Shown here piece after piece: positions 3,990 to 28,801 of a DNA stretch of 53,315 nt (the first letter of the stretch is position 1; the number at the start of each line of letters is the position of its first letter). The notes beneath the pieces are model-generated. The model did not search any database and was not told the origin of the DNA. It worked only from the letters and a program-made list of their open reading frames with translations. Source of the DNA: a virus (lineage: Duplodnaviria > Caudoviricetes); IMG/VR virus record IMGVR_UViG_3300002855_000250, positions 1-53,315 of that record; one strand, written 5' to 3'. A program made the position numbers and the translations under genes.

Positions 3990-4166
3990 TCAGATTGGGT
4001 CAAACTTATCCCTAATGTCTTGGCATTTATTGATAGCATTCTCAAGCAAATCTCGTATTTTGTATTGCTGTTTCGTGTCAATGTAGGACGACGCTTCGCC
4101 TATGAGTCGTTCTATCTCCCCGACACTTACTACGATTTCTTTGGTCTTTCCTGTCGCCTTAGCCAA
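3990..4166 (-). CDS. Hypothetical protein
   Basis: TTG start behind AAGGAGG. Confidence 0.5.
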   Translation of the reverse strand: MAKATGKTKEIVVSVGEIERLIGEASSYIDTKQQYKIRDLLENAINKCQDIRDKFDPI

Positions 4167-4218
4167 CGGGCAACGCTCCCTCCTTCGCATAATGTGTCCT
4201 TTGCGTCAAATCTTCGAA

Positions 4219-4572
4219 CTACGCAGTGAACAAGTTCGGTTCGAGTGCCTTAAGCAAGCGTTCCGCATCTCGCGCCGTACCATCTCCGTTCAGTACGCGA
4301 TACCGCAATTTGTCGTCCACCAGAGGATCCCAAATAATTAACTTTCCGTCTTCAAAGTCATCTGCTAATCCCTCGCTGAATGCGTAAGCTAGGATACAGA
4401 AGTCTTCACCATCTGTTCCGTAACCCTCTACCATCTCTTTTGTTACGCCGACTTCCGCCAACTCAGCAAGGTTCTCTTCGTTGATTTTGACGATCATATA
4501 AGCGTCTTCCCCGCCTTGTTGGTCAACTACTTCCAGAGCGTTCAATACATTCAGTACAGCCTGCTTATTCAT
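4219..4572 (-). CDS. Acidic hypothetical protein
   Basis: 117 aa, GGAGG RBS. Confidence 0.7.
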   Translation of the reverse strand: MNKQAVLNVLNALEVVDQQGGEDAYMIVKINEENLAELAEVGVTKEMVEGYGTDGEDFCILAYAFSEGLADDFEDGKLIIWDPLVDDKLRYRVLNGDGTARDAERLLKALEPNLFTA

Positions 4573-6045: not shown

Positions 6046-7038
6046 CTAGAATAGTGTTTGTTGCCCCATTTCCTCAATTGCCATTTCGAGATTTGCGGCT
6101 GCTGTCCGGTAGTAACTTTCTTTCAGCTCGACTCCAACAAAGCGTCTGCCCATTTTTAGCGATACATATCCTTCACTTGCAATTCCAGCGAATGGTGACA
6201 AGACTACATCGCCCGGATTAGACCACAACTGCAATGCCCGCTCGATCACGTCCAACTGTAGTGGGCAGATGTGTTTTTCGTCCTTCTCATCTCGCGCAGG
6301 ATTGCGGTTAAGAGTGCGGCTTTGGTTGATGTCCATCCATACCGGACTAGCGTATCGACGCCATACCTGATGCGAGTAAACTGGATCAGTTTTAGCCATA
6401 GATATGAATCGATGTTGCCTGCTGTCCTTTAGTGTTGGTTCAACTCTTGGAGCATTTGGTTCGTCAAGCCCTACAAATTCAGTTAACCCATCAGGATGAG
6501 CAACCGGCTCTGGGTTATCCCCCTGCTTGCGCATTGTGATTAAATAATCGGGCAATCCTTGACGACTCATCGCTGAGTCTTTCACGAGCTGCTTGTGCAT
6601 TAATCCAATGGCTTTGGTTCTTGTGGCTTCGATCAGTGGGTCTTTCCAAATTGCCACCTTGGAATGGTAGATAAATCCCTCATCCTCGAACATTTGCCTT
6701 AGTTGCGCTGGGAAGTCTTTCAGTCCAATGAACCCATCTCTTGACTTCATGGCCGGGATATCCATGCAATGGAACGATAGCAGCCGACCAGGCATCATAA
6801 CCCTGTACAGTTCCTTGATAAGGAATCTAAAGTGGTGCATGAAATCCTCATCGCCCTTGCTATTTCCCATGTCGCGTTCACTGTTCGAATAGGTGTAGAG
6901 TGATGCAAACGGAGGACTGAATATCGAATAATGAACACTGTCGTCTGGGATCCCCTTTGTGACATCTACGCAATCGCCATGATATAAAGCGTATTGGTCG
7001 GTTATCACTTCATCAATCGTCTGGACTTCTAACTGCAT
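6046..7038 (-). CDS. DNA methyltransferase, N4-C/N6-A family (beta class)
   Basis: Catalytic SPPF near the N-terminus, HICP, SAM-binding SPFAGIAS, GVELKESY; C-terminal QQTLF. Confidence 0.9.
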   Translation of the reverse strand: MQLEVQTIDEVITDQYALYHGDCVDVTKGIPDDSVHYSIFSPPFASLYTYSNSERDMGNSKGDEDFMHHFRFLIKELYRVMMPGRLLSFHCMDIPAMKSRDGFIGLKDFPAQLRQMFEDEGFIYHSKVAIWKDPLIEATRTKAIGLMHKQLVKDSAMSRQGLPDYLITMRKQGDNPEPVAHPDGLTEFVGLDEPNAPRVEPTLKDSRQHRFISMAKTDPVYSHQVWRRYASPVWMDINQSRTLNRNPARDEKDEKHICPLQLDVIERALQLWSNPGDVVLSPFAGIASEGYVSLKMGRRFVGVELKESYYRTAAANLEMAIEEMGQQTLF

Positions 7039-8429
7039 TGTTTCTCACTCCTTAGCCAATGCGGGATTGTCATCCGTTTCCGTGGAACATATTCCGTTTT
7101 ATCCGCTTTTGTTGACTTGATATTTGCGCTTGTGATCTCTTTCGTATGCTTGATCATTTGAGCGACCATCTGCATAAAATCAGCTTCCTTGCGCTTGATG
7201 TTGGCAGATACCGCTCCTTCCAGTTCGGAAATGATCATATGCACGTTTACAGGCTTTGTCTGTCCGAAGCGGTAGCAACGTCTTATGGCTTGGAACACTT
7301 GCTCAAAGCTGTCTGAGAGTCCTACGAACGCCATATCAGCGCAGTGTTGCCAGTTCATTCCGAATCCGCAGATCGATGGCTTGGTGACCAACACACGTAT
7401 CCTGCCCTCTGCAAAATCAAGCATGGCTCTTTCCTTGTGTTCGGGTGAATCAGATCCCTTGACTTCGACCGCTCCTGATATTGCCTTAGTCAATAACTCC
7501 GACTCTCGATTAAGGTCACACCACACTAGGAATGGGCGATCAGTTGCATTGACGATCTCTGCACACTTGGCAACGCGTAACTCTGTGCTGTCCCTCCGCG
7601 CTCTCTGGCGCTCCTGCAGTGTCTTGGCTTCTGCCGCAAACAATCCGTCATCGAAGCTATGCTCAACGCTCACGATGTGGTCTATGACATTCAGCGGTGG
7701 TAGGTTGTAGGCTCCATCATCGAACCCGATATCAGATGGCTTAGTGACCAATGCTGCCCATGACGCTACCCACTCCCAGAACTTGTCCTCAGCGTGGCCC
7801 TTCAAACGCCATTTACTTGTATCCCCGCCATCATGAACAAAGAACATCGACAACATCTCAGTACGGCTCATCACGCCCATGAACTCACTGTGGTTACCAA
7901 GCTCCATGTAATCGTTAGGTGCTGGTGTAGCGGTACAGGCGAGCTTGTACGGCGTGGCTCTGAAACTGTCTAGGATGAGGTTTCTCATCTTTCCGTCGTA
8001 GGCTTTTATGATGGAGCTCTCATCCAGAACTACACCCTCAAATTCCTCTGGATTAAACTTGTGAAGCATCTCGTAGTTGGCAATGTTGATGCCTTGTCTA
8101 ACTTCCGACTTCGATCGGCATAGCGTGATATTGATTCCTAGCTTCATGGCTTCTCGGACTGTCTGTGAAGCTACTGCGAGAGGTGCAAGGATTAATATGT
8201 TGCCGCCTGTATGCTGCTGTACGAGTCGCGCCCATTCCGTTTGCATGAATGTCTTACCTAATCCCGTTCCCGCGAAAATGGACGCTCTGCCCTTTGCAAC
8301 TGCCCACTTGACTATTGCCCTCTGGAAGTCGAATAACATTTGGTTAATGTCGTTATCAGTGACTGAGAATCCAGATGGCTCAACGATTGACTTCTTGTTC
8401 TGCAAAAACTGTTCATAGGCCGCTTCGAT
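7029..8429 (-). CDS. SF2 (SNF2-like) helicase/ATPase
   Basis: GTGLGKT, LDESS, TATP, GFGMNWQ, QAIRRCYRFGQ; probable ATC start at 8429 behind GGAGGTG (the track uses TTG 8405). Confidence 0.9.
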   Translation of the reverse strand: MEAAYEQFLQNKKSIVEPSGFSVTDNDINQMLFDFQRAIVKWAVAKGRASIFAGTGLGKTFMQTEWARLVQQHTGGNILILAPLAVASQTVREAMKLGINITLCRSKSEVRQGINIANYEMLHKFNPEEFEGVVLDESSIIKAYDGKMRNLILDSFRATPYKLACTATPAPNDYMELGNHSEFMGVMSRTEMLSMFFVHDGGDTSKWRLKGHAEDKFWEWVASWAALVTKPSDIGFDDGAYNLPPLNVIDHIVSVEHSFDDGLFAAEAKTLQERQRARRDSTELRVAKCAEIVNATDRPFLVWCDLNRESELLTKAISGAVEVKGSDSPEHKERAMLDFAEGRIRVLVTKPSICGFGMNWQHCADMAFVGLSDSFEQVFQAIRRCYRFGQTKPVNVHMIISELEGAVSANIKRKEADFMQMVAQMIKHTKEITSANIKSTKADKTEYVPRKRMTIPHWLRSEKQCS

Positions 8430-25938: not shown

Positions 25939-27219
25939 ATGCGTGCTGAAGATGTATTGTATTTGGCGTTAAATCGCCTTGCCGAGTCTGATGTTAAGTC
26001 GCGTAAAAGCAATGGATTCAAGCTAATTCAATCCCGAAACATTGAATGTGGGTCTGAACATGCTTTCCGACTCCCCCTTGGATACAGTGCATTTGATGTC
26101 CAAAGCAAGGCAGATACCCTCGTAGCCGCTGTAGGGGCTCCTGTAGAGGTTATAGACCGGGGTGGGGCGGTTGTGCTGAGAGTAATTAAGAAAGACTTCC
26201 CTCTCGAACTTGCGGTCAGGGAGAAGGACATTCACTCTAAAGGTTTATTGATCGGCTATGACCGCTTAATGAACCCTCTATACCACCCCTTAAATACACA
26301 CATGCTTGTTGGTGGTGCTTCAGGATCCGGTAAGACTGACGCTGTTCGTTTCTGGATTTGGCAGTTATCACTTCAAGGGTACGACGTTAGAATCTGCGAC
26401 CTCAAAGGATTCTCATTCCTAGAGTTCGAGAGACTTCCGAATGTGTCCGTTGCTAAGTCCTTAGGTGAATCCTGTGATATGCTCGTAGACTCCATTTATG
26501 AATTAATGGCTCGTAAAGAAAAGATCATCCGTATGCGTTCCCGCGAAATCATTAAAACATTCAGACCAATTGTCGTTGTCATAGACGAAGCTGCTTCACT
26601 CGCTCCCAGACAGAATAACGGTAAATCTAAAAAGCTCGCTGAGGAATGCGATCACGCAATTTCGCTGTTCGGTCAGCAGGCCAGAGAACCGAAAATGTCC
26701 ATGATCTACTGCACGCAAAGACCCAGTATGGATGTCATAAATCTGCAGTTCCGAGCTAACGTTGAAGCCATGATTGCTTTCAGATGCCGAGACAAAGAAA
26801 ACTCTAAAATGATCCTTGGCAAGGAAGGGGCCGAACGAATCAGTCCTACCACACCTGGAAGATGTATCTACGCTTTCGAGCGCGATTACCATTTACAAGT
26901 TCCGTATGTAGGTAATGATTCTGCTTGGGCCAAACTGCTCACACCGAAAGTGGAGGTATTGCAGCATGGAAGTTCTCACCGCGCCGAACCAAAAAGAGCT
27001 TATCTTGAAGGCTCTTACACAAGTGCCAATAGCGACAATAGCGCAACTCTCAACACTGAACAATTCCCTCAGTCCCAAAAAGAAATCATCCAGCCTGTTA
27101 AGGGAACTCGAAGAGAATCGTTTAGTACAGTGGAGATGGCACGGCCAAGAGAAAGTATGGTCTCTAACCAAAAAGGGACGTCAGGTGCAACAGTGTACAA
27201 CGATGAGATTTCCGAATGA
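25939..27219 (+). CDS. FtsK/SpoIIIE-family ATPase (coupling-protein-like)
   Basis: GGASGSGKT, DLKG, VVVIDEA, CTQRP; AGGAGG RBS. Confidence 0.9.
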   Translation: MRAEDVLYLALNRLAESDVKSRKSNGFKLIQSRNIECGSEHAFRLPLGYSAFDVQSKADTLVAAVGAPVEVIDRGGAVVLRVIKKDFPLELAVREKDIHSKGLLIGYDRLMNPLYHPLNTHMLVGGASGSGKTDAVRFWIWQLSLQGYDVRICDLKGFSFLEFERLPNVSVAKSLGESCDMLVDSIYELMARKEKIIRMRSREIIKTFRPIVVVIDEAASLAPRQNNGKSKKLAEECDHAISLFGQQAREPKMSMIYCTQRPSMDVINLQFRANVEAMIAFRCRDKENSKMILGKEGAERISPTTPGRCIYAFERDYHLQVPYVGNDSAWAKLLTPKVEVLQHGSSHRAEPKRAYLEGSYTSANSDNSATLNTEQFPQSQKEIIQPVKGTRRESFSTVEMARPRESMVSNQKGTSGATVYNDEISE

Positions 27220-27598
27220 AATAACCCACTCTCTTTCCTTGGCAAATCTGTATTTTCAGATTAAGCCAAAGTATTGGCTATACGAGCCCATTGAACGATT
27301 TGAACATCTTGGGAATGAGTACACTTGGGCTCCTGACTGTATTTTTGTATACCAGAAGAAGGTTTATGCTTGCGAATTCCAGAGAACTAGGCTCACTCAA
27401 AAACGATGGGCGTTGAAATGGAATGCCTACAATCTTTTTTTCAATCGGGATCATTTCCACTCTGCAATATTTCAGAAATGGTCGACAAATCCTATCCTCC
27501 CTCAATTTCTAGTTATAACAAGCCAACAACCGGAAATCGTCAAAAACGGATTCGAAGTAAGTAATCGTGAGCTGATCGTATGCAGAGAGTTCAAGTAA
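26966..27598 (+). CDS. Replication-relaxation family protein (wHTH plus PD-(D/E)xK-like nuclease)
   Basis: LRELEENRLV, WSLTKKG, HSL....LY, PDCIF, ACEFQRT, KW.AY; GGAGG RBS before ATG 26966. Confidence 0.75.
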   Translation: MEVLTAPNQKELILKALTQVPIATIAQLSTLNNSLSPKKKSSSLLRELEENRLVQWRWHGQEKVWSLTKKGRQVQQCTTMRFPNEITHSLSLANLYFQIKPKYWLYEPIERFEHLGNEYTWAPDCIFVYQKKVYACEFQRTRLTQKRWALKWNAYNLFFNRDHFHSAIFQKWSTNPILPQFLVITSQQPEIVKNGFEVSNRELIVCREFK

Positions 27599-27600
27599 AA

Positions 27601-27681
27601 CCCGCCTGATGAGTGCATGACACCTTGGGGCCGATGGCTACGGTCCGAAAACCTTCCAATACGGGAGGTTAGCGGGAAGCC
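27601..27681 (+). ncRNA. Type I hammerhead ribozyme (variant with a 15-nt insertion before stem II)
   Basis: Stem I CCCGC/GCGGG, CUGAUGA 27606-27612, stem II GGGCCG/CGGUCC, GAAA 27647-27650, stem III ACCUUCC/GGGAGGU, UUA triplet ending at 27671, loop II GGCU complementary to 3' AGCC. Confidence 0.75.
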
Positions 27682-27709
27682 GCAAATTCAACTTGGAGGA
27701 TGATTATTA

Positions 27710-27982
27710 ATGATCATCGGAGAAAGAAAAGTAGTTGACGGGTTCTATGGGAAAGTGGACGTTACGGAAGTCCGAGAAGGTTCAGTCGTGTCGTACTACG
27801 ATCGCACATATGCGAACCATTACGAGGGTGTTGTTGTGGAGCAGGCAGAGGATGGGTTGACCGTCTTAGTCCTTGCTGCTGATAAACAGCCACAAACCGA
27901 TTCTTTCCGTCGCGTAATGTTTGGAAAGGCGTACTATGCAAACCTCACCGGAATTATCGAAATGCCCTCTTCCCACCGTTAA
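27710..27982 (+). CDS. Hypothetical protein downstream of the ribozyme
   Basis: 90 aa, GGAGG RBS, beta-rich. Confidence 0.7.
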   Translation: MIIGERKVVDGFYGKVDVTEVREGSVVSYYDRTYANHYEGVVVEQAEDGLTVLVLAADKQPQTDSFRRVMFGKAYYANLTGIIEMPSSHR

Positions 27983-27993
27983 CCAGCCTTGTG

Positions 27994-28030: not shown

Positions 28031-28059
28031 TTGGCAAATAAGAGCTTGTAACGTACAAT
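28031..28059 (+). promoter_or_regulatory. SigA-type promoter
   Basis: TTGGCA-17-TACAAT upstream of 28124. Confidence 0.6.
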
Positions 28060-28123: not shown

Positions 28124-28801
28124 ATGAAAAAGAAATTATTATTATCATTGTTAATTGTTGTTGTGATGCTCGCATCCGCTTCAGTCGGCGCTTATGCTGC
28201 CACCAAGATGACGCTGATCGTTAATGGCAAAACCGCTTCAGTCGACCCTGTAGTCATTAAAGGCGTTACTTACGTCCCTCTCAGAGCTGCCGCCGATATG
28301 CTCGGGGCAAAAGTTAACTATGATGCATCGACCAACACCGTCACGGTAACTGGAAATCCAGAGATACCAAACACTCCAGCATCCAAGATAAAATCTTACA
28401 GCGTTGATATAACAGTCAATAGTGGCCCAATGATCATGAAGATCTCTAAGATTTCACTCGATCCAGCTTATAAACAATATTCCTTCGAATCGGCATCTCA
28501 CAAAGCGATTATACTTGAAGCCACAGTGGAGAACACTTCGGCCGATAAAATGACATGGTACGTCGATCAATCACAGCTGGTATTAAATACTAAGGAACAG
28601 ATCGAAGACTCATTAATGAGTGACAGCCGGATATCATCAGATTTTAACGGAAAGGTTATTAAAAAGGGACAGATTGCATTCGAGGTTAAAGACAGTGATC
28701 TAGAGGATATATCCAGCATTAGATTACTCTTGAAGTATGTAGTTGATGAAAAATTCAAGAGAATAGCTGAAGACAAGGAAACCGAAATAATACTTAAATA
28801 A
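28124..28801 (+). CDS. Secreted protein: signal peptide, copper-amine-oxidase N-terminal (stalk) domain and Ig-like domain (moron)
   Basis: MKKK-hydrophobic-AYA; GVTYVPLRAAADMLGAKVNYD; own promoter and terminator. Confidence 0.8.
   Translation: MKKKLLLSLLIVVVMLASASVGAYAATKMTLIVNGKTASVDPVVIKGVTYVPLRAAADMLGAKVNYDASTNTVTVTGNPEIPNTPASKIKSYSVDITVNSGPMIMKISKISLDPAYKQYSFESASHKAIILEATVENTSADKMTWYVDQSQLVLNTKEQIEDSLMSDSRISSDFNGKVIKKGQIAFEVKDSDLEDISSIRLLLKYVVDEKFKRIAEDKETEIILK

Follow-up and report, generated by a model that had tools for sequence, protein, structure and literature searches.

A candidate type I hammerhead ribozyme with a conserved hairpin inserted between A9 and stem II, located directly after a stop codon in a provirus genome

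The DNA analyzed here, referred to below as the window, comprises the 53,315 bp of a provirus record in IMG/VR (IMGVR_UViG_3300002855_000250; Duplodnaviria, Caudoviricetes). Its + strand carries an operon-like row of genes in which an FtsK/SpoIIIE-like gene is followed by a gene for a 210-amino-acid (aa) protein and by an open reading frame (ORF) of 90 aa. The spacer between the stop codon of the second gene (TAA, 27596–27598) and the 90-aa ORF measures 111 nucleotides (nt) and houses a hammerhead element (27601–27682, +) which begins 2 nt after the stop. This element is best explained as a self-cleaving type I hammerhead ribozyme, stabilized by a pseudoknot, which contains an inserted hairpin (hp1) and a CUUG linker and would cut after A27671, separating two mRNAs; a probability of roughly two in three is assigned to this reading. 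The features of the locus are as follows.

25939–27219, +: FtsK/SpoIIIE-like gene (Pfam PF01580; phrog_1358, E 4e-50)
26966–27598, +: upstream gene, replication-initiation-like, 210 aa from the M at 26966; the ORF opens at 26915 (PHROG phrog_2190, E 3.3e-14)
27601–27605, +: stem I 5′ strand, CCCGC, pairing with 27672–27676
27606–27612, +: catalytic core C3 to A9, CUGAUGA (from the sequence)
27613–27623, +: inserted hairpin hp1, GUG (27613–27615) with CAC (27621–27623), loop CAUGA (27616–27620) (sequence and conservation)
27624–27627, +: CUUG linker from hp1 to stem II (sequence)
27628–27646, +: stem II, 6 base pairs (bp), GGGCCG (27628–27633) with CGGUCC (27641–27646), loop II 27634–27640 (sequence and covariation)
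27647–27649, +: core G12 A13 A14, GAA (sequence)
27650–27670, +: stem III hairpin, 8 bp, 27650–27657 with 27663–27670, loop 27658–27662 (sequence and predicted fold)
27671, +: H17 (A), predicted scission between 27671 and 27672 (position from the sequence)
27672–27676, +: stem I 3′ strand, GCGGG, which would become the 5′-OH end of the downstream RNA (sequence and covariation)
27678–27682, +: 3′ tail pairing with loop II (27635–27639) as a pseudoknot, GGCU (27636–27639) with AGCC (27678–27681)
27695–27699, +: Shine-Dalgarno-like GGAGG of the 90-aa gene (sequence)
27710–27982, +: downstream orphan ORF, 90 aa, the last gene ahead of a hairpin and a new promoter-like site

All core bases, three helices and the pseudoknot between loop II and the 3′ tail can be read from the element itself. 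Its first core segment follows the hammerhead order C3 U4 G5 A6 N7 G8 A9, stem II is closed by the G10.1–C11.1 pair (G27628–C27646), stem III opens with the A15.1–U16.1 pair (A27650–U27670), and position 17, at which a base other than G is expected, is A27671. Stem I is open, as in type I hammerheads, and the three helices surround the core. The pseudoknot, to which a wobble between U27635 and G27682 may be added, supplies the tertiary contact between stems I and II (27635/6–27639 with 27678–27681/2). Adjacency of CUGAnGA to stem II, with at most one or two extra nucleotides, is not seen here, as 15 nt intervene (27613–27627); this is the only departure of the element from the hammerhead consensus. 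The minimum free energy fold of the 84 nt from 27599 to 27682 consists of stem I, the GUG/CAC hairpin, stem II, and stem III. The first-pass annotation, made from the letters of the window, had described an atypical type I hammerhead 2 nt past the stop codon with all core nucleotides, three helices, a 15-nt insert able to form a GUG/CAC mini-hairpin, and the GGCU/AGCC pseudoknot. The re-read coordinates and the fold agree with that description, and each of its elements is borne out by the conservation and compensatory changes in relatives described below.

A relaxed hammerhead descriptor which allows an insert of 0–20 nt between A9 and stem II matches the window once, at 27606, and matches 4 of 300 dinucleotide shuffles (whole window, both strands). 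As a chance occurrence, the motif alone is only moderately unlikely. What decides that the element exceeds chance is homology, as judged by sequence comparison. A BLAST search of 27585–27712 against 401 Paenibacillaceae genomes returned one strong match, in Cohnella (L004; E 4.5e-11, 77% identity), which spans precisely 27600–27685. L004 preserves stem I, CUGAUGA, CUUG, GAAA, and the U-H dinucleotide at the predicted cleavage site, while the insert hairpin is altered in a compensatory manner, a G-U pair of stem II is replaced by A-U, and the pseudoknot changes on both sides from GGCU:AGCC to GGGU:ACCC. Stem III of L004 has a different sequence and is fully paired over 12 bp (8 bp in the window). 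The weaker BLAST matches L005 and L011 were rejected, since they exhibit no hammerhead core, as was a Hammerhead_1 match inside the coding region of L004 (20.8 bits, E 0.74), which has no GAA after its stem II.

Further relatives were gathered by pattern scans and with a covariance model, R1. Twenty distinct core modules were recovered across 31 loci; they share an architecture in which CUGAUGA, a hairpin of 3–6 bp with a freely varying loop, CUUG, stem II, and GAAA follow one another. When R1 was used to search 151 Paenibacillaceae genomes as an unbiased sample, matches were found in 18 of them; the window scores 74.7 bits and the other 34 matches 25–110 bits. Among the 26 matches in the 151-genome sample, two carry a hairpin plus CUUG insertion, two carry other insertions, and two are false positives. 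The variants from Paenibacillaceae found with R1 are L101 and L102; the matches L116 and L118 were rejected because they lack the core. The type I module was also retrieved by pattern scan from Paenibacillus sp. P25 and a Parabacteroides metagenome-assembled genome (MAG), and by a type I scan that left the middle of the motif free from P. profundus, an uncultured Paenibacillus, and Cohnella boryungensis. Most of the 95 stretches returned by this free-middle scan represent chance, rows with a stem III of 2–3 bp being counted as such, and not all rows were classified. Chance matches were also frequent in the other scans: 20 of the 23 matches of one pattern scan were judged to be chance, and L047 was rejected on the same ground. 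In viral sequences, 25 of 54 pattern matches carry the module (29 being chance), with the type I form present in five uncultured phage contigs and a type III permutation in twenty further ones. In genomes, 10 of 79 pattern matches passed the structure filter and 69 were rejected as chance; the ten lie in six Desulfosporosinus species, which retain the module while its loops drift, a Gracilibacter MAG, Paenibacillus typhae, a Cohnella sp., and a Parabacteroides MAG.

In the type III permutation, one strand of stem III comes first and is followed by the cleavage site, a stem I hairpin, CUGAUGA, the inserted hairpin, CUUG, stem II, GAAA, and the other strand of stem III; a ribosome-binding site and ATG lie about 20 nt downstream of the element. 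The Rfam model Hammerhead_3 scores type III variants at 35.0, 32.8, and 28.7 bits (gathering score 48.5) and reads their middle as a 27-nt loop.

Support for the predicted helices comes from an R1 alignment of 34 distinct sequences, which includes canonical relatives and two false positives. In this alignment, 93.0% of the cells of paired positions are paired as opposed to 71.6% in shuffles, a value reached by none of 500 shuffles, and 27–43% when the partners are slid against each other; changes on both sides are seen in 21 of 22 pairs. The covariation in homologues that the first-pass annotation had named as a check is thereby found. Stem I varies in concert among relatives (CCCAC/GUGGG, UGGCA/UGCCA, ACUGU/GCAGU), and stem III changes in sequence with its pairing kept in L004 and others. 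In L041, L056, L058, L073, L090, L101, L103, and others, the two conserved helical segments of stem III are separated by an internal loop in which UA faces GAU or GAC; this loop is common to variants and canonical forms.

The inserted hairpin likewise covaries. Across 18 distinct sequences, its pairs 1–3 are standard in all 54 cells, although the identity of the pairs differs (pair 3 is C-G in five and G-C in thirteen, pair 4 is G-C in six and C-G in ten, and the closing pair of L102 is A-U), and 15 different loops of 3–5 nt occur, including UUCG and GAAA. Among 15 distinct stem II sequences, the closing pair is G-C in all but one, which has G-U, a figure partly imposed by the search patterns. 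The duplex between loop II and the tail measures 4–6 bp in all 14 distinct type I variants and is built from at least five different sequence pairs. An alternative in which the tail mainly forms a 5′-terminal hairpin with the 3′ strand of stem I was considered; such pairing is possible in many members and impossible in L101, L187, and L192, in which the pseudoknot is kept. Taken as sequence evidence, the inserted hairpin, stems I–III, and the pseudoknot all covary, and by descent the element is a conserved hammerhead.

Since two hairpins stand between A9 and G12 in these variants, either could in principle represent stem II. Canonical type I cousins found with R1 agree with the variants in stem III, tail, and pseudoknot; nine of them pass directly from A9 to stem II and nine do so with a single U. 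Stem II of the canonical L103 is letter-identical to the second hairpin of the variant L041, and it is the loop of the second hairpin that forms the pseudoknot. The second hairpin is thus the true stem II by both descent and function, and the opposite assignment, with the small first hairpin as stem II and the second as the insert, was rejected on these grounds. Also rejected was an arrangement in which the G that follows A9 is paired with the C that precedes G12, as in the GCC/GGC pairing of the Rfam style, which can form only in some type III members and is impossible in the window and most others. Judged by these alignments, hp1 and CUUG are an insertion between A9 and G10.1, which supports the first-pass annotation in placing a 15-nt insert there. 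Because descent from canonical members can be seen, the element is filed as a variant of the hammerhead class and not as a member of its consensus, and the adjacency of CUGAnGA and stem II is an empirical regularity, not a catalytic requirement. A single U between A9 and G10.1, at the position taken by the hairpin insert in the variants, occurs in many phage and prophage hammerheads that are canonical in other respects, of both type I (L103–L108, L110, L113, L119) and type III (L134, L135, L137, L148).

In a type III scan in which the stem II region was left unconstrained (46 stretches, 31 distinct), CUUG is found in six of six distinct variants (14 of the 46 stretches), and among 13 rows of the hp1 type in the free-middle type I scan it is found in eleven, with CAUG in one (L308) and CUAUG in one. 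In the type III element L129 (4662–4751, −), a full 5-bp hairpin replaces CUUG, resulting in three hairpins between A9 and G12. In a CUUG tetraloop, the C and G pair with each other. The linker may act as a minimal capped arm or turn in a four-way junction. Fifteen cyanobacterial type I hammerheads, mostly from Nostoc (L244–L246, L248, L249, L251, L257, L260, L263, L266, L267, L284, L302, L305, L275), carry one or two hairpins at A9/G10.1 with other linkers or none. All of them exhibit a 6–7-bp pseudoknot between loop II and the tail, and several of their junction hairpins contain the palindrome GCGATCGC. A Rhizobiales hammerhead has a UUCG-capped hairpin at the same junction. The variants, L129, and the cyanobacterial and Rhizobiales copies together indicate that A9/G10.1 is a recurrent site for extra helical arms. 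As predicted from sequence, the insert turns the three-way junction into a four-armed one, in line with the four-way-junction variant that the first-pass annotation had offered as one possibility.

No promoter-like site was found on the + strand between 26919 and 28031, which is consistent with co-transcription of the three genes. The following gene (28124–28801) has its own promoter-like site at 28031–28059, and an endolysin gene converges from the opposite strand. According to the proposed mechanism, the RNA would fold while the operon of FtsK-like, replication-like, and 90-aa genes is being transcribed; loop II would pair with the tail 3′ of stem I, aligning stems I and II; and self-cleavage would follow after A27671. 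The ribozyme body would remain as a structured 3′ end of the upstream message, and the downstream message would begin with a 5′-OH at G27672, 23 nt before GGAGG and 38 nt before the ATG. In this way, the fates of the upstream and downstream parts of the mRNA would be uncoupled. RNAfold additionally pairs UUCAAGU (27590–27596), which spans the upstream stop codon, with ACUUGGA (27691–27697), which overlaps GGAGG. As this predicted helix encloses the ribozyme, cleavage could free the ribosome-binding site of the 90-aa gene; pairing of this type was not seen in L004.

The placement of the element recurs in the family. At eight other loci, all with unrelated flanking genes, its first nucleotide falls −3 to +17 nt from the stop codon that ends a small ORF, and GAAA is followed 46–188 nt later by the start of the next ORF. 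This placement after stops and before small genes fits published hammerheads which flank single genes in prophages (Perreault et al., 2011, PMC3088659).

As for the genes themselves, the 210-aa protein has homologues in Cohnella and Paenibacillus and no Pfam match. The FtsK-like ORF (to 27219) and the next ORF (from 26915, or from 26966 by homology) overlap by about 250–300 nt in different frames; the C-terminal tail of the FtsK-like ORF has a low-complexity appearance, and the exact end of this ORF or start of the next one (26915–27219) is uncertain. The 90-aa protein has no match in Pfam or PHROG, matches none of the 401 Paenibacillaceae genomes, and returned only itself from a search of 5.8 billion proteins. 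A blastn search of 27560–27990 against phage records in GenBank yielded no match. Loci homologous to that of the upstream gene were not obtained by single-protein scans; alignment-based scans yielded two, L002 and L003.

Several of the collected loci exhibit additional peculiarities. On the contig of a Parabacteroides MAG (L040), the variant hammerhead (approximately 4150–4249, −) is accompanied on the same strand by two Twister-P5 ribozymes (7010–7071, −, and 6448–6505, −; 44.3 and 43.4 bits, above Rfam gathering), and the gene after the hammerhead encodes a tail-fibre homologue (phrog_1491). One Paenibacillaceae genome (G067) contains seven hammerhead matches on short contigs (L105, L120, L122–L126), a distribution suggestive of a ribozyme carried by a repeated element. 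In this genome, L122 exhibits a 10-nt partial duplication of the stem II strand and resembles the same hammerhead as L238 (P. popilliae), and L276 exhibits tandem duplications of a unit containing the core.

A number of points weigh against a catalytically active hammerhead at this locus. A9 and G10.1 form a divalent-metal site in hammerhead structures, and an insert between them could slow or abolish catalysis. Known hammerhead alignments are stated to contain no insertion of more than 1–2 nt beside CUGAnGA (Eckert et al., 2023, PMC10085705). Position 17 is A in the window as opposed to C in 13 other distinct type I variants. At L002 and L003, the stop codon of the upstream-gene homologue is followed directly by the next gene and the element is absent; the core conservation in homologues which the first-pass annotation had set as a condition is thus found in the homologues of the element itself and not at the loci homologous to the upstream gene, from which it follows that the ribozyme is not tied to that gene. 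Most variants were retrieved by patterns which impose the core and the closing bases of the hairpin, and some also CUUG, and core conservation among these is not independent evidence; the core is unbiased only in L004 (BLAST) and in L101 and L102 (covariance model), and the hairpin-closing and CUUG letters are independent only in these three and in the two free-middle scans. Finally, the Rfam hammerhead models, also named in the first-pass annotation, match neither the whole window at gathering thresholds nor 27540–27760 at E ≤ 10. The Rfam result is a low-power test for this lineage: among 17 related loci, canonical ones included, L122 alone scores (26.6 bits, below gathering), and RF00163 fails to report the canonical prophage hammerheads L103–L115 of the same lineage (E ≤ 0.1, 46.8 kb). 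Since Rfam misses the canonical relatives as well, its silence on the window carries little weight, and annotation pipelines will miss such hammerheads.

How the insert affects activity is the main question on which the competing explanations divide. The ribozyme might be conditional, with hp1 and CUUG holding the core inactive or making cleavage dependent on a phage or host factor, temperature, or an ion, and with downstream expression regulated accordingly. Several features favor this reading: the insert interrupts the core between A9 and G10.1; CUUG hardly varies, in contrast to the freely covarying hp1; and in the window and four type III variants RNAfold places the two U of CUUG opposite A13 and A14 of GAAA, a pairing which would unmake the core. 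A precedent can be seen in saltern hammerheads, in which a 2-nt core insertion impairs cleavage under standard conditions and rescue by high salt was tested (PMC3088659). Against conditionality, the hp1 loop varies too widely (15 loops among 18 sequences) to offer a conserved binding site for a ligand or protein, and the UU:AA alternative is lost where CAUG (L308) or a hairpin (L129, Nostoc) takes the place of the linker. We regard a conditional ribozyme as unlikely. A broader version of the same idea, held to be slightly less probable still, is that hairpin insertions at A9/G10.1 constitute a widespread, undescribed class of four- or five-armed hammerheads, represented by one or two hairpins in Nostoc and by hp1 plus CUUG in contigs of uncultured phages and in genomes of Bacillota and Bacteroidota, with the extra arm serving as a control module through which cleavage becomes conditional. 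If this were true, such RNAs would be natural allosteric hammerheads which time the release of downstream phage mRNAs through a phage or host factor or through folding kinetics.

It could also be argued that the element is a dead relic, namely an active prophage hammerhead inactivated by a core insertion, whose similarity to the other copies reflects recent shared ancestry. The insert indeed lies where insertions are regarded as not tolerated, hp1 of the window is weak (3 bp), its position 17 is unusually A, and damaged members exist (a degenerate stem I 3′ strand in L121 and the duplications in L122 and L276). Such decay is difficult to reconcile with the spread of 20 distinct versions, some of type I and some of type III order, over genomes of Bacillota and Bacteroidota and contigs of uncultured phages, with compensatory changes in hp1 and intact cores, and with retention of the module in six Desulfosporosinus species. 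The relic is the least compatible with these observations because an inactive ribozyme would not keep its core, pseudoknot, and paired insert, and it is considered improbable. More improbable still is a hammerhead-derived RNA which no longer cleaves and has another role, such as protecting a 3′ end by its structure, binding a protein, or signaling RNase processing between genes. The post-stop position, at which a terminator or stabilizer hairpin might sit, recurs in the eight other loci mentioned above; for these roles, however, there would be no need to keep CUGAUGA, GAAA, and U-H invariant or to align stems I and II through a pseudoknot. That a permissive descriptor was matched by chance, as the four matching shuffles and the lack of an Rfam match would allow, is refuted by the L004 copy, the R1 scores, and the covariation controls and has a negligible probability. 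A type I hammerhead that is probably catalytically active with the insert in place, as judged from its conservation, thus continues to be the preferred reading.

The hammerhead is the best-studied small ribozyme, and neither motif searches nor the logic of conserved blocks by which possible permutations are enumerated (Eckert et al., 2023) allows for an interruption at A9/G10.1. Yet a hairpin that is conserved and covaries recurs at this position across several bacterial phyla and two permutations. Descriptor and covariance-model searches systematically overlook this set of natural hammerheads, and a four-way junction can apparently also support the hammerhead core. The natural series of forms with an insert, a single U, or no intervening nucleotide provides a ready system for studying the effects of an extra arm on folding, metal binding, and rate, and the variant should be of clear interest to ribozyme specialists. 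For phage biology, the family adds further examples of ribozymes which directly follow a stop codon and closely precede a small gene.

Full-text searches of the literature, including that on Nostoc, brought up no account of a hairpin inserted at A9/G10.1, although such sequences might be present in the alignments that supplement Perreault et al. (2011) and Eckert et al. (2023); nor is a junction insert of this kind mentioned in the excerpted sections of a 2017 review. With no published description found, the hairpin insert appears to be a previously undescribed variant of the known hammerhead. Among small self-cleaving ribozymes, the four-way-junction forms of twister-sister likewise possess an extra helical arm (PMC5660989). 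As twister-sister differs in ribozyme class and active site, the likeness is one of analogy only. A further comparison is offered by hammerheads with core insertions of 1–2 nt, such as A6a, U13a, and G2a/C2b of saltern and halovirus variants (PMC3088659). Both groups tolerate extra nucleotides at the core, and some of the small-insertion hammerheads exhibit reduced or condition-dependent activity. Their insertions, however, comprise 1–2 nt at other positions, whereas the present family contains an 11–15-nt hairpin and a 4-nt linker at A9/G10.1 as a conserved module.

Plasticity of connectivity has also been described for the SGC and CSG non-circularly permuted hammerheads, which, like the present family, were found by comparative analysis (PMC10085705). 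The underlying permutation scheme rests on the uninterrupted block formed by CUGAnGA and its neighbor (Eckert et al., 2023, PMC10085705). In SGC and CSG, the blocks are reordered and each remains intact; in the present family, the classic order C-G-S (S-C-G in type III) is kept while Block C is interrupted. Also among the nearest known systems are the prophage type I hammerheads (PMC3088659; Rfam RF00163, clan CL00010), which share with the window element the core, the three helices, the open stem I, and the position between small genes of a prophage operon. Hammerheads with pseudoknots flank genes in prophages, and polycistronic RNAs containing them are cleaved in vitro (Perreault et al., 2011, PMC3088659). 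The likeness extends to the use of a Watson-Crick pseudoknot in place of a loop-loop contact, and canonical members of the window element's own lineage occur in Paenibacillaceae. What sets the element apart from these prophage hammerheads is the 15-nt module of hairpin and linker between A9 and G10.1; RF00163 scores neither the element nor, for the most part, its canonical relatives.

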